A stretch of DNA of 64,000 nt from Shigella phage ESH35. The stretch is from sequence record ON528745; one strand, written 5' to 3'. Below are positions 10,848 through 14,813 of this stretch, piece after piece (the stretch's first letter is position 1; each line of letters opens with the position of its first letter). The notes below the pieces were generated by a model. It did no database searches, had not been told where the DNA came from, and worked only from the letters and a program-made list of their open reading frames with translations. The position numbers and the translations under genes are program-made.

Positions 10848-11034
10848 CATTAATGATGAATTCATAGCAAACATTGATTATACCGAAGAAGATTCTAGAT
10901 ATGTTGGAATAATTTATATCACATCAAAAACAGCACAAGGCGTTGTTTGCATGGCTGAATTTGATGAATACTTTTTAGATTATGATGATATGATAGAATG
11001 GTCTAAAAGATACATTAAAAGGAATCTTTTGTGA
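10819..11034 (+). CDS. hypothetical acidic protein (about 71 aa)
   Basis: internal ATG of track ORF 10771..11034; overlaps gene 46 start. Confidence 0.4.
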   Translation: MHTVKFSTFDINDEFIANIDYTEEDSRYVGIIYITSKTAQGVVCMAEFDEYFLDYDDMIEWSKRYIKRNLL

Positions 11035-12719
11035 AGAATTTTAAACTAAACCGAGTTAGGTATCAAAATATAATGTCAGTAGGTGGAAATCCTATTGACA
11101 TTCAATTAGATAAGGTTCAAAAAACTCTTATTACTGGACGAAATGGCGGTGGTAAGTCTACTATGTTAGAAGCCATCACATTTGGGCTTTTTGGCAAGCC
11201 ATTTCGTGATGTAAAGAAAGGTCAATTAATAAACAGCACAAATAAGAAAGAACTTTTAGTTGAACTGTGGATGGAATATGATGAGAAAAAGTACTATATC
11301 AAAAGAGGACAAAAACCAAACGTTTTCGAAATCACCGTTAACGGTACACGTCTTAATGAATCTGCCAGCAGTAAAGATTTCCAAGCAGAATTTGAACAGC
11401 TTATCGGAATGTCATATGCCAGTTTCAAGCAGATTGTTGTCCTTGGTACAGCAGGGTATACCCCTTTCATGGGTTTGTCGACCCCTGCACGAAGAAAGCT
11501 TGTGGAAGACCTGCTTGAGGTAGGAACATTAGCTGAAATGGATAAGCTTAATAAAGCACTAATACGTGAATTAAATTCACAAAACCAAGTGCTTGATGTT
11601 AAAAAAGATAGTATTATCCAACAAATTAAAATATATAATGATAACGTTGAACGCCAGAAAAAATTAACTGGTGACAACCTTACTCGTCTTCAAAATATGT
11701 ATGATGATTTGGCAAAAGAAGCTAGAACGCTAAAATCAGAAATAGAAGAAGCTAATGAAAGATTAGTTAATATTGTTTTAGACGAAGACCCGACTGATGC
11801 ATTTAATAAAATCGGTCAAGAAGCAGTTTTAATTAAATCAAAAATTGACTCGTATAATAAAGTCATTAATATGTATCATGAAGGTGGATTATGTCCAACC
11901 TGCTTGTCACAATTAAGTTCCGGTGATAAAGTTGTTTCTAAAATTAAAGATAAAGTTTCTGAATGTACGCATTCGTTTGAACAGCTTTCAACACATCGTG
12001 ATAATTTAAAAGTTCTTGTTGATGAATACCGAGATAATATTAAAACCCAGCAGTCGTTGGCAAATGATATTCGCAATAAAAAGCAATCTCTAATCACGAC
12101 GGTAGATAAAGCTAAAAAAGTTAAAGCAGCTATAGAAAAAGCATCTTCTGAGTTTATTGACCATGCTGATGAAATAGCATTGCTTCAAGAAGAACTTGAT
12201 AAAATTGTTAAGACAAAAACTAATTTAGTAATGGAAAAATACCACCGAGGAATTTTGACTGATATGCTCAAAGATTCTGGTATTAAAGGTGCTATTATTA
12301 AAAAGTACATTCCATTATTTAATAAGCAGATTAACCATTATCTTAAAATAATGGAAGCGGATTATGTGTTTACATTAGATGAAGAATTTAATGAGACAAT
12401 TAAATCCCGTGGTCGTGAAGATTTTAGTTATGCTTCATTCAGTCAAGGTGAAAAAGCGCGAATTGATATTGCTCTTTTATTTACTTGGCGTGATATTGCT
12501 GAAAAAGTTTCAGGTGTTAAAATAAGTTGTTTATTTCTTGATGAAGTGTATGACGGTGCATTTGATGCTGAAGGCATTAAAAATGTAGCTAAAATTTTAG
12601 ATGGTTTGAAGGATACCAACTTCTTCATAATTTCGCATAAAGACCATGATCCGCAGGATTATGGACAGCATATTAAAATGGAAAAAGTTGGTAGATTTAG
12701 TGTTGCCACTATTAATTAA
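11031..12719 (+). CDS. 46: recombination endonuclease subunit (Rad50/SbcC-like ATPase)
   Basis: 562 aa, GTG start; Walker A GRNGGGKST, CPTC zinc hook, long coiled coil, C-terminal Walker B. Confidence 0.92.
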   Translation: MKNFKLNRVRYQNIMSVGGNPIDIQLDKVQKTLITGRNGGGKSTMLEAITFGLFGKPFRDVKKGQLINSTNKKELLVELWMEYDEKKYYIKRGQKPNVFEITVNGTRLNESASSKDFQAEFEQLIGMSYASFKQIVVLGTAGYTPFMGLSTPARRKLVEDLLEVGTLAEMDKLNKALIRELNSQNQVLDVKKDSIIQQIKIYNDNVERQKKLTGDNLTRLQNMYDDLAKEARTLKSEIEEANERLVNIVLDEDPTDAFNKIGQEAVLIKSKIDSYNKVINMYHEGGLCPTCLSQLSSGDKVVSKIKDKVSECTHSFEQLSTHRDNLKVLVDEYRDNIKTQQSLANDIRNKKQSLITTVDKAKKVKAAIEKASSEFIDHADEIALLQEELDKIVKTKTNLVMEKYHRGILTDMLKDSGIKGAIIKKYIPLFNKQINHYLKIMEADYVFTLDEEFNETIKSRGREDFSYASFSQGEKARIDIALLFTWRDIAEKVSGVKISCLFLDEVYDGAFDAEGIKNVAKILDGLKDTNFFIISHKDHDPQDYGQHIKMEKVGRFSVATIN

Positions 12720-13429
12720 TGTTTGTGCTTACAGTTATCATTATGCCACCTTGATAAATTTCCGAAAGTGGTAACTTTACCACAATGGACGCAAGTACCA
12801 GTCTTTTCAGTTTTCTTGCGTCCATTTGGATTTTTCTTGCAGAAATTTCTATGCGCTGCGATAACGCATTTCTTGCCTATCATTCCGCAGAATTCGCAGG
12901 ATGTTTCTTCAAGAATGATTGCTTTAAGCCCGTTTGAGATATTATTTCTGTGTTCTTTAGACATCGGTGGTCTAACTTTAGGATTAGGGTGATTCGGGCA
13001 GTTATCAAAATGCCATCGATTCATATTCCCGCTTAATCCGGACTTACCGCAATGTGGACAAGTTAGTCTTGCTTTATTAGCTACTGCATCAGACATTTTC
13101 TTTCGTGTCTCCTGGGAGAATTCTTTATTCTTTTCTATTTCCCAGAGTTTACGACGAATCCAACCGAAAGTTTTATTGTTACGTTTAGCGTATTTCGTGG
13201 AAACTGTCATCATGTTAGCAGCATAGACTAATTTTGGTTCAGAAGGATAAATTTTTACTAAAAGTTGATGAGCTACATAGTGCTCTTCCGGTGTTAAATC
13301 TACTAAGTTTGAAGCATCATCGCTGCCATTTAAACAGCGTGGTATAATGTGATGAGATTCAGTATAGCAATCAAGTTTTCGAGATTTAGCATTAGAGATT
13401 AACTTTTCATAAATTAGTTTATAATTCAT
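12716..13429 (-). mobile_element. free-standing HNH homing endonuclease with three C-x2-C...H...C zinc-knuckle repeats
   Basis: N-terminal HNH motif (SHHIIPR...NLVDLTPEEH); antisense to neighbours; 4-bp tail-to-tail overlap with gene 46. Confidence 0.75.
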
Positions 13430-13462
13430 AACATATCCTTTTGATACAGCGAGTGATAAACA

Positions 13463-13470
13463 TATTTATA
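13463..13470 (-). promoter_or_regulatory. late promoter TATAAATA for the HNH gene
   Basis: exact TATAAATA on - strand about 35 nt upstream of start; AAGGA SD at 6 nt spacing. Confidence 0.55.
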
Positions 13471-13480
13471 CGGAGGAACT

Positions 13481-13672
13481 GTGGCAGAATATTCAACTGG
13501 ACAGCATCTATTAACTTTTCCTGAAATAAAACGATATATTCTGAGAAATAATTTTTCTAATGAAGAGCATATAGTTACTGAATCTATGCTTAGGAATGCA
13601 TTTAAAGCAGAATATACAAAAATAATGTCCAATAGAAATGAAGCTTGGACTGTTACTGATTATTATGACTAA
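13481..13672 (+). CDS. hypothetical protein (63 aa)
   Basis: GTG start with GGAGG upstream. Confidence 0.4.
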   Translation: MAEYSTGQHLLTFPEIKRYILRNNFSNEEHIVTESMLRNAFKAEYTKIMSNRNEAWTVTDYYD

Positions 13673-13681
13673 AGGTGTATT

Positions 13682-14071
13682 ATGACTAAAATTACTGTGA
13701 ATTATACTGTTGATGTAAAAGATATTCAGCCAAAACACGTGCGTTCTGAATCAAATCCACAAAACCAAAATAAAATTCGTCGAGCATGGGTTTTGTCTCT
13801 TTCTGATAACGCAATGGAAGTTATTCAGAACAAAATTAAATCTGCACCTGCTCGTCATGCGTATTATGAAGCTATCGATCGTGAAGTAAGTAATAAATGG
13901 ATTGAACTAATGCGCAAACATACTACAGAATCCCTAAACGCCGGTGCTAAATTTATTATGACTTCATGCGGTGAACGTCTTGAAGATGAATATTGCGGCA
14001 ATGCAGATGAACGTCTGATTGTTGCTGCTCAAATTGTTGCCGAAACAATCGCAGCTGATTTTAATCGTTAA
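13682..14071 (+). CDS. rpbA: RNA-polymerase-binding protein RpbA-like (by size and position)
   Basis: 129 aa, between genes 46 and 45 as in T4. Confidence 0.5.
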
Positions 14072-14126
14072 TTGCTTTATTAAATTAGTTATAAAATTAA
14101 ATCTCATTTGAATTGAAGGAAATTAC

Positions 14127-14813
14127 ATGAAACTGTCTAAAGATACTACTGCTCTGCTTAAAAATTTCGCTACTATTAACTCTGGTATTATGCTTAAATC
14201 AGGTCAATTTATTATGACTCGTGCGGTTAATGGTACAACTTATGCGGAAGCAAATATTTCTGACGTTATTGATTTTGATGTAGCAATTTACGATTTGAAC
14301 GGTTTTCTCGGTATTCTGTCTCTAGTTAATGATGATGCAGAAATTTCCCAGTCAGAAGATGGAAATATTAAAATTGCTGATGCCCGCTCAACAATTTTTT
14401 GGCCAGCAGCCGATCCGAGTACAGTAGTTGCTCCTAATAAACCAATTCCATTCCCGGTAGCATCTGTTGTTACTGAAATTAAAGCTGAAGACCTTCAACA
14501 GCTGTTGCGTGTATCTCGTGGTCTGCAGATTGATACAATTGCTATCACGGTAAAAGAAGGTAAAATCGTAATTAACGGTTTTAATAAAGTAGAAGATTCT
14601 GCTCTTACCCGTGTTAAATATTCTTTGACTCTTGGTGATTATGATGGTGAAAATACATTTAATTTCATTATCAATATGGCAAATATGAAAATGCAACCAG
14701 GAAATTATAAACTTCTGCTCTGGGCAAAAGGTAAACAAGGCGCTGCTAAATTTGAAGGTGAACACGCGAATTATGTAGTAGCTCTTGAAGCTGATTCTAC
14801 CCACGATTTTTAA
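14127..14813 (+). CDS. 45: sliding clamp
   Basis: 228 aa; position in the 45-44-62 operon. Confidence 0.92.
   Translation: MKLSKDTTALLKNFATINSGIMLKSGQFIMTRAVNGTTYAEANISDVIDFDVAIYDLNGFLGILSLVNDDAEISQSEDGNIKIADARSTIFWPAADPSTVVAPNKPIPFPVASVVTEIKAEDLQQLLRVSRGLQIDTIAITVKEGKIVINGFNKVEDSALTRVKYSLTLGDYDGENTFNFIINMANMKMQPGNYKLLLWAKGKQGAAKFEGEHANYVVALEADSTHDF

Follow-up and report, generated by a model that had tools for sequence, protein, structure and literature searches.

Which kind of gene runs against all of its neighbours beside gene 46 of Shigella phage ESH35, and on which DNA would its product act? Our analysis covers a stretch of 64,000 nucleotides from sequence record ON528745, referred to here as the window. 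The open reading frame (ORF) in question occupies 12716-13429 on the minus strand, starts with ATG and encodes 237 aa plus a stop, while gp47, 46.2, 46.1, gp46, 45.2, rpbA, gp45, gp44 and gp62 all lie on the plus strand; in this respect the original prediction was accurate. It was equally accurate in describing a tail-to-tail overlap with gene 46: gp46 ends at 12719 and the ORF at 12716, so that the two stops share 4 bp (TTAA, 12716-12719). The proposed slot between gene 46 and rpbA holds on the gene 46 side, but not on the other, where the real neighbour is gene 45.2 (13481-13672) and rpbA (13682-14071) is the next gene after it; the host interval is that between genes 46 and 45.2. No paralogues of the ORF were found elsewhere in the window. 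The features on which the argument draws are the following, with their basis in brackets:

12716-13429, minus strand: homing endonuclease gene, 237 aa, equivalent to RB32ORF054w / RB51ORF057 (phrog_655; dN/dS)
13130-13429, minus strand: predicted N-terminal HNH (His-Me finger) catalytic domain, residues 1-100 (Mob homology, invariant residues, AF2 model)
13250-13360, minus strand: predicted beta-beta-alpha core, residues 24-60 (within the HNH domain)
13079-13123, minus strand: NUMOD3-like helix SQETRKKMSDAVANK, residues 103-117 (sub-threshold Pfam match and model)
12998-13060, minus strand: putative CCHC zinc knuckle 1, C124, C127, H140, C144; CPHCG...WHFDNC (ligand pattern)
12839-12898, minus strand: putative CCHC zinc knuckle 2, divergent, C178, C181, H193, C197; CEFCG...AHRNFC (ligand pattern)
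12731-12793, minus strand: putative CCHC zinc knuckle 3, C213, C216, H229, C233; CVHCG...WHNDNC (family-wide invariant, C-terminal)
13463-13470, minus strand: T4-type late promoter consensus TATAAATA (exact match)
13436-13440, minus strand: Shine-Dalgarno sequence AAGGA (6 nt 5' of the ATG)
12501-12719, plus strand: 3'-terminal block of gene 46, diverged or foreign in genomes with the endonuclease gene (identity drop against genomes without it)
12704-13486, no strand assigned: segment replacing the 55-bp 46-45.2 spacer (alignment of six genomes with and seven without the gene)

The gene itself is already known, as an unremarkable representative of a familiar class. Novelty had been implied, but the ORF is already annotated as RB32ORF054w / RB51ORF057 (YP_002854012.1), to which it is 97.8-99.6% identical (99.6% for the RB51 protein), with locus and orientation unchanged; RB68, RB33 and about 55 further Tequatrovirus records carry the gene there as well. 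The genome records of RB32 and RB51 describe it as 'similar to mobB, putative site-specific intron-like DNA endonuclease', RefSeq as 'homing endonuclease', and a tally of homing-endonuclease genes in T4-related phages includes the mob-like HNH genes of these two phages (PMC2993671). In the literature we found no experimental characterisation of RB32ORF054w or RB51ORF057, their target included. A 1-bp indel at the 3' junction sets the window and RB51 apart from RB32; their endonuclease has 237 aa instead of 238 aa, and gp46 ends in SVATIN in the window and RB51 and in SLAKIS in RB32. Otherwise there is no difference of substance from these genes.

The distribution of the homing endonuclease gene (HEG) is sporadic. 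About 59 of about 500 Tequatrovirus records carry it, all at the 46/45.2 site. T4, T2 and RB3 do not, and their 46-45.2 spacer is empty and 55 bp long, against 761 bp here. Both the statement that T4 has no endonuclease at this locus and the expectation that the gene would be missing from some relatives were thus borne out. Orthologues with 42-63% identity occur in Yersinia phage MHG19, Mosigvirus ST0, Pseudotevenvirus EBPL and Slopekvirus KpCCP1, i.e. in three other Straboviridae genera and one unclassified Tevenvirinae phage, and all four lie antisense and tail to tail beside gene 46. For Slopekvirus, 72 of about 114 close records possess the HEG. Among 80 gene 46 loci in IMG/VR none was accompanied by this endonuclease, and these served as comparators lacking the gene only. 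Because the gene had been catalogued before, its existence adds nothing new; what sequence comparison adds here are the fixed-position orthologues in four further lineages and a one-sided tract in gene 46.

The assignment to the HNH enzymes rests on several lines of evidence. The N-terminal motif named in the original prediction is present, with SHHIIPR at residues 25-31 and NLVDLTPEEH at residues 41-50. The profile phrog_655 ('homing endonuclease') matches the ORF with E=1.8e-68, and blastp detects T4 MobB (44% over 126 aligned positions, E=2.5e-29), MobD (53% over 75, E=4e-23) and MobC (37% over 142, E=4e-22); this homology is confined to the N-terminal domain (110 aa, 37-53% identity). According to the AF2 model of this domain (pLDDT 92, pTM 0.82), strands at 24-27 and 42-45 are followed by a helix at 47-60. 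E24, H26, H27, N41, H50 and H54 are invariant across 37-44 homologues; in the model H26 and H27 lie on the first strand, N41 by the second, and H50 and H54 on the helix. The catalytic His, the structural Asn and the metal-binding His/Asn of an HNH enzyme are therefore conserved on a beta-beta-alpha core. HNH_3 gave no match, and Pfam HNH scores the ORF at 17 bits, under its cut-off of 21.4. Foldseek against the PDB returned HNH domains as the best matches of the model, at weak E values of 0.4-2 and with a Gme HNH nicking endonuclease among them, and a sequence search of the PDB reached only E=0.17. None of nine orthologues examined contains a stop or frameshift, and dN/dS of the ORF is 0.10 against RB32, 0.05 against JE01 and 0.13 against ST0; judged by these ratios, the ORF is intact and under purifying selection rather than a decaying relic. 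Mob homology, phrog_655 and the sporadic distribution thus support the predicted HNH-type free-standing homing endonuclease gene, and its product is probably an active enzyme of the Mob type.

The C-terminal half contains three C-x2-C-x11/12-H-x3-C units (residues 124-144, 178-197 and 213-233). Three copies of a W-H-x-D-N-C knuckle had been claimed: the three ligand units stand, but W-H-x-D-N-C is present only in knuckles 1 (WHFDNC) and 3 (WHNDNC), while knuckle 2 (AHRNFC) keeps the ligand pattern without the W and D-N residues. All four ligands of knuckle 3 are invariant in 37 homologues. Each unit is modelled as a beta-hairpin plus helix, at residues 121-140, 175-197 and 210-232, respectively. 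Between the HNH domain and the first knuckle, Pfam NUMOD3 scores below threshold (12.6 bits against a cut-off of 20.4); many homologues of the ORF have a precomputed PF07460 match, and the region is modelled as a helix at 106-117. The most probable architecture, which we predict with good confidence, is an N-terminal HNH domain, a NUMOD3-like linking helix and, for DNA binding, a tail of three putative CCHC knuckles.

Among known systems, the ORF resembles MobB, MobC, MobD and MobE of T4 in its homologous N-terminal HNH domain, with the start MNY..IY and the motif HHIIP...NLV.LT..EH, and in being a free-standing, sporadically distributed gene in a spacer between conserved genes. It differs from the T4 Mob genes in its locus and predicted target (gene 46) and in its unrelated C-terminal DNA-binding region; MobB, MobC and MobD lack a CCHC knuckle. 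A second point of reference is I-HmuI of Bacillus phage SPO1, an HNH nicking enzyme that is encoded within an intron and is not known to have a zinc knuckle array. I-HmuI was not among the fold matches of the ORF models. The two share an extended two-domain design, in which NUMOD-type segments connect the HNH domain at the N-terminus with a DNA-binding region at the C-terminus (PMC2790892). HEGs of the T5orf172/CapR type also combine a nuclease domain with tandem, independently folded zinc modules, and also lie at the boundary of sequence exchange between related phages; their nuclease is GIY-YIG-like, however, not HNH, and their zinc motif is CxxC...CxC, not C-x2-C-x11/12-H-x3-C (PMC10448857).

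As to the cleavage chemistry, the ORF has a single HNH active site, and its sequence contains no sign of pairing to cut both strands. There is about an even chance that the enzyme acts as a site-specific nickase and not as a double-strand cutter, as MobE and I-HmuI are reported to do; its nick would become a break via replication or processing. The Gme nickase among the weak structural matches points in this direction, as does the strand-specific nick made by MobE, the only mapped Mob enzyme (PMC2790892). On the other hand, I-TevIII of RB3, an HNH enzyme too, gives a double-strand break (PMC2790892), and the sequence by itself fits either chemistry.

Concerning expression, the minus-strand late promoter consensus and Shine-Dalgarno sequence of the original prediction are both in place. 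TATAAATA is exact and ends up 33 nt 5' of the ATG, although its frequency is within chance for this AT-rich window (4 occurrences against 9.7 expected from shuffles). Its position is conserved in orthologues from three lineages (-41, -43 and -53); it is found at -43 in Yersinia phage MHG19 and at -53 in Mosigvirus ST0, and seven of its eight bases are kept in EBPL and KpCCP1. The orthologues of MHG19 and ST0 have kept AAGGA as well. The antisense orientation with an own late-promoter consensus differs from mobE, which is promoterless and co-transcribed with nrdA (PMC2790892). Two further regulatory devices were considered. An RNA hairpin hiding the ribosome-binding site, as in mobE and I-TevI, was rejected, since the 13400-13475 minus-strand fold (-9.5 kcal/mol, z = -0.77) is like those of shuffles. 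Autorepression through an operator similar to the homing site, known from I-TevI, found no support: the promoter and 5'UTR matched gene 46 or the spacer of genomes without the HEG no better than shuffles did (245 and 27 of 300 shuffles gave equally good local alignments); the best match was 13 of 14 bases, TTTTGATACAGCGA against T2 gene 46. A scan of 12400-14200 for sigma-70 promoters and terminators yielded nothing over background and no terminator.

In the junction alignment of six genomes with and seven without the HEG, the two sides differ. Carriers and non-carriers among the Tequatroviruses are 97-99% identical over 500 bp of upstream gene 46, but only 73-76.5% over the 3' block, which spans from just before Walker B to the gene 46 stop; no fixed differences between them were found on the 45.2 side. 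For a 200-bp block measured in two genera, the identity is about 72-76%. The same one-sided divergence is seen between Mosigvirus ST0 and L009, and with a shorter tract between Slopekvirus KpCCP1 and KP27. The tract measures about 200-220 bp in Tequatrovirus and Mosigvirus, where its boundary lies at about 12501-12526, and about 90 bp in Slopekvirus. Given these differences between genera, the boundary cannot pinpoint the cleavage site: no single position emerges, and we rejected it as a locator. A single travelling cassette was rejected as well, because the gene 46 ends of HEG carriers do not cluster across genera (window against ST0, 67%). The tract of the Tequatrovirus carriers has a best match of 76.5% to any sampled lineage.

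The one-sided tract suggests a target within the 3' end of gene 46, with 12501-12719 as the predicted co-conversion tract that holds the site. A comparable pattern of co-conversion and polymorphism has been reported for MobE, which targets its conserved neighbour nrdB and leaves polymorphism beside the site (PMC2790892). The tract could also be mere flanking DNA brought by the element from a distant donor, and its identity of at most 76.5% to any sampled lineage is consistent with import. Such passenger DNA would accompany a target in the 46/45.2 spacer or at the start of 45.2, a placement that we regard as unlikely. The element does replace the entire 55-bp spacer and rewrites both adjoining gene ends (...RFTVMV* to ...RFSVATIN* in gene 46, ATG to GTG-Ala at the start of 45.2); the spacer is invariant in seven of seven genomes without the HEG, as expected of a conserved target, and the differing tract lengths suit this placement too. 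Yet the spacer is not conserved between genera (the genes abut in KP27), although the orthologues keep the site, and the divergence is strictly one-sided in three genera. Furthermore, SegF, SegG and MobE cut within a conserved neighbour gene, away from the insertion point (PMC2988022, Table 1; PMC2790892). Least probable is that the gene no longer homes and is kept for the parts it lends its neighbours (gp46 C-terminus, 45.2 start, 45.2-rpbA promoter) or for a domesticated role in competitor exclusion or regulation: the element does supply the final gene 46 codons and, on the other side, the RBS-proximal start of 45.2, it displaces the MotA-box/-10 motif of the T4 spacer and has a strict MotA-type promoter pattern of its own (12920-12945, plus strand), and seg and mob genes are known to be retained more readily when promoters are embedded in them (PMC2988022), but such signals need no intact ORF, whereas dN/dS is 0.05-0.13 and catalytic and zinc ligands are kept across genera, and the scattered occurrence inside each genus is what continuing gain and loss would produce.

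Returning to gene 46 as the target, we propose the following course of events. The HEG would be expressed late, driven by its own TATAAATA promoter and transcribed against the surrounding early and middle genes. During mixed infection, the enzyme would bind a long site in endonuclease-free relatives, predicted to lie in the 3'-terminal ~200 bp of gene 46, which encodes a Rad50/SbcC-like ATPase, or at the 46/45.2 junction, and would nick or cut there. Recombination-dependent repair would then copy the HEG together with the adjoining gene 46 end from the carrier genome, which itself would be protected because its own gene 46 stretch has diverged. In T4, the gene 46 product is known to process the breaks on which homing depends.

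The picture drawn from sequence is one of a Mob-family catalytic domain, intact catalytic and zinc-ligand residues, and one fixed locus in several genera. A more far-reaching joint reading, to which we give slightly less than an even chance, is that a Mob-type lineage whose usual tail was replaced by a knuckle array has become specialised for the 3' end of gene 46, persisting at this one site in at least five Straboviridae lineages (four classified genera). At each transfer the terminal 90-220 bp of gene 46 would necessarily be co-converted, which would leave an essential recombination enzyme with chimeric ATPase segments at its C-terminus (Walker B, D-loop, H-loop); in Slopekvirus, an unrelated second gene of HNH-AP2 type would compete for the junction.

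The compact combination of an HNH domain with zinc knuckles may be a source of a DNA-targeting scaffold. When related phages infect the same cell, free-standing homing endonucleases influence which alleles persist; they also mark the boundaries of genetic exchange. Targeting of gene 46, if true, would leave this current understanding unchanged; it would mean that the 3' end of the gene is attacked and that foreign sequence for an essential Rad50-like ATPase, from Walker B to the stop, is dragged along, and would add a useful further case to work on marker exclusion in T-even crosses.

The window represents a T4-like (Tequatrovirus) genome segment with the plus-strand gene order 47, 46.2, 46.1, 46, 45.2, rpbA, 45, 44, 62, regA, and the 3.4 kb around the homing endonuclease gene (HEG) are 99.0% identical to RB51 and RB68. 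HEG is the sole substantial minus-strand ORF in this region.

Features of the HEG locus and its product
11031-12719, plus strand: gene 46
12716-13429, minus strand: HEG ORF, 237 aa, ATG start
6 nt 5' of the HEG ATG, minus strand: AAGGA, ribosome-binding site
13463-13470, minus strand: exact match to the T4-type late promoter consensus TATAAATA
13481-13672, plus strand: gene 45.2, GTG start
13682-14071, plus strand: rpbA
HEG protein residues 124-144, 178-197 and 213-233: C-x2-C-x11/12-H-x3-C units

The original prediction described an antisense 237-aa ORF among plus-strand neighbors, a 4-bp tail-to-tail stop overlap with gene 46, an exact late promoter sequence plus Shine-Dalgarno sequence upstream, and a set of HNH motif residues, all of which were found; the tetranucleotide common to the two stops is TTAA. 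Two details required correction: HEG lies between genes 46 and 45.2 and does not adjoin rpbA, and of the three proposed W-H-x-D-N-C zinc knuckles, all three units exist, but the middle one reads AHRNFC. With these changes the observation is confirmed.

The HEG protein is assigned to phrog_655 'homing endonuclease' (PHROGs, E=1.8e-68). Its Pfam scores are 17 bits for HNH (cut-off 21.4) and 12.6 bits for NUMOD3 (cut-off 20.4); an IscB HNH region profile yields E=3.8e-5, yet far under its cut-off. The first ~110 residues share 44%, 53% and 37% identity with the N-termini of T4 MobB, MobD and MobC, respectively (E 3e-29 to 4e-22), and 69% with a gene named 'mobB' that phage CAM-21 carries at its gene 2/3 locus. 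E24, H26, H27, P30, G35, N41, H50 and H54, together with all four last-knuckle ligands, are invariant across alignments of 37 and 44 homologs; distant homologs possess NUMOD3 repeats in place of the internal knuckles, and hence the DNA-binding tail is modular. Confident AlphaFold models (pLDDT 88 for the whole protein; pLDDT 92 and pTM 0.82 for the N-domain) place strands 24-27 and 42-45 and helix 47-60 in a beta-beta-alpha core, followed by a helix-containing linker and three knuckles that each pair a hairpin with a helix. The best PDB matches of the N-domain are HNH domains (Cas8-HNH, McrA, IscB, Gme HNH nickase), though weak (E 0.4-2); structural searches with the whole model returned nothing informative. 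Among HEG orthologs dN/dS is 0.05-0.13, which indicates purifying selection on the ORF. Judged from sequence, the predicted identity as an HNH homing endonuclease appears to be right.

HEG belongs to a well-known class and has been annotated before. It is RB51ORF057 in RB51 and RB32ORF054w in RB32 ('putative site-specific intron-like DNA endonuclease, similar to mobB'), dozens of phages have it in RefSeq as 'homing endonuclease', and RB32 and RB51 are entered with mob-like HNH genes in a 2010 tally of homing-endonuclease genes across T4-related phages (PMC2993671). Our literature searches found no paper characterizing HEG itself. T4 reviews list no endonuclease at the 46/45.2 locus (PMC2988022), because T4 lacks the gene.

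Among ~500 records with at least 90% DNA identity, 59 contain HEG, always at the 46/45.2 site; its distribution is sporadic. A tblastn search also yields 59 records with a copy at 95% or more. As anticipated for T4, an identical 55-bp spacer without HEG occurs in T4, T2, RB3, G4507, Sf21, SA21RB and ESh33. Boundary alignment against T4, T2 and RB genomes reveals that the HEG+ allele replaces all sequence from ~12704 to ~13486, thereby altering the gp46 C-terminus (...RFSVATIN in the window and RB51, ...RFSLAKIS in the RB32 type, ...RFTVMV in HEG- genomes) and the 45.2 start (GTG-Ala in HEG+, ATG in HEG-). Two junction subtypes are found among HEG+ Tequatroviruses at 12700-12730: relative to RB32, QOTSP, JE01 and AV120, the window and RB51 show one extra base and several substitutions, a 237-aa endonuclease ending KHKH (238 aa, KYKPS/KYKLS in the RB32 subtype) and a 4-bp instead of an 8-bp overlap with gene 46.

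Orthologs occupy the same site in Yersinia phage MHG19 (63% identity), Mosigvirus ST0 (58%), Pseudotevenvirus EBPL (43%) and Slopekvirus KpCCP1 (42%), in all four antisense, tail-to-tail against gene 46 and upstream of the 45.2 homolog. The intact 238-aa ST0 ortholog (L094 2501-3217 = NC_041990.1 25203-25919) is missing from the RefSeq annotation, whose feature table leaves the 46-45.2 interval blank. MHG19 and ST0 have an exact TATAAATA at -43 and -53, respectively, and EBPL and KpCCP1 match it at 7/8 bases; a 5'UTR motif, tATC...GCTGTATCaAA.AAGGA, is common to MHG19, ST0 and the window and recurs in weaker form in EBPL and KpCCP1. The gene is present in 72 of ~114 close Slopekvirus records. 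Some Slopekviruses carry at this junction a different, sense-strand ORF of 184 aa with an AP2-like C-terminus, annotated 'HNH endonuclease' (Klebsiella phage vB_KpnM_Lychee_ER51, L101 1290-1844) and without similarity to HEG; Lychee_ER51 has its own diverged tract of ~240 bp at the gene 46 end. This junction seems to be a hotspot for which unrelated endonuclease genes compete.

The gene 46 sequences of six HEG+ and seven HEG- Tequatroviruses agree at 97-99% up to ~12500, whereas from there to the stop HEG+ and HEG- alleles share only 73-76.5% identity and are separated by ~20 fixed differences; the sequence from 45.2 onward has none. The tract begins at 12501 against T4-type and at 12526 against T2-type alleles, and identity breaks between the gp46 ABC signature motif (SQGEKARIDIALLFTWRDIA) and Walker B (LFLDE). 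Divergence is similarly one-sided between Mosigvirus ST0 and the HEG- IMG/VR locus L009 (96.6% upstream, 72% over the last ~195 bp, ~100% downstream) and between Slopekviruses KpCCP1 and KP27, where it is confined to the last ~90 bp. Because the diverged blocks of different genera are unlike one another, a single traveling cassette is ruled out. Over its last ~220 bp, gene 46 also occurs as two haplotypes within the HEG- Tequatroviruses (12500-12630 compared with L087-L092), T4/RB3/G4507/Sf21 and T2/SA21RB/ESh33, which differ at many positions although the remainder of the gene hardly varies; the gene 46 end is hence mosaic through recombination even where no endonuclease is present.

These comparisons go only as far as placing the obligatorily co-inherited tract, and with it probably the HEG target, in the 3' end of gene 46. 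Alternatively, HEG may target the spacer or the start of 45.2, both within the replaced segment, in which case the gene 46 tract would be passenger DNA. A 13-of-14 match between TTTTGATACAGCGA (13438-13451, plus strand, HEG 5'UTR) and TTTTGATTCAGCGA of T2 gene 46 (L090; the D-loop coding region of T2-type alleles, within the predicted target tract) is not significant, with 27 of 300 shuffles equally good.

MobE nicks nrdB in an HNH-dependent manner, co-converts the flanks and leaves polymorphism that tells carrier alleles from empty ones (PMC2790892). Beyond the sequence features, we infer by analogy that a monomeric HNH enzyme would be expressed late, that its zinc-knuckle/NUMOD3 tail would read a long site at the gene 46 end of endonuclease-free phages, and that a nick or cut there would be repaired by recombination from the carrier genome, itself immune because its own tract has diverged. 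The enzyme may be a nickase that makes no double-strand break.

Within HEG, on the opposite strand, lies a strict MotA-box middle-promoter pattern (TGCTTTA-N12-TATTAT, 12920-12945, plus strand), directed towards 45.2-rpbA-45 and identical in 6/6 HEG+ Tequatroviruses checked; the HEG element displaces TGCTTTA-N11-TATAAT of the T4 HEG- spacer. Strict MotA patterns number 9 on the plus and 5 on the minus strand of the window, against roughly 1.5 per strand by chance. Other seg and mob genes are known to contain embedded promoters (PMC2988022), and by analogy this one may be a replacement promoter. That HEG is retained for such embedded signals and not for homing is disfavored, since dN/dS is low and the catalytic residues are intact.

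What this analysis adds is comparative: a locus fixed across several lineages, together with a one-sided diverged gene 46 tract, yields a testable target hypothesis.
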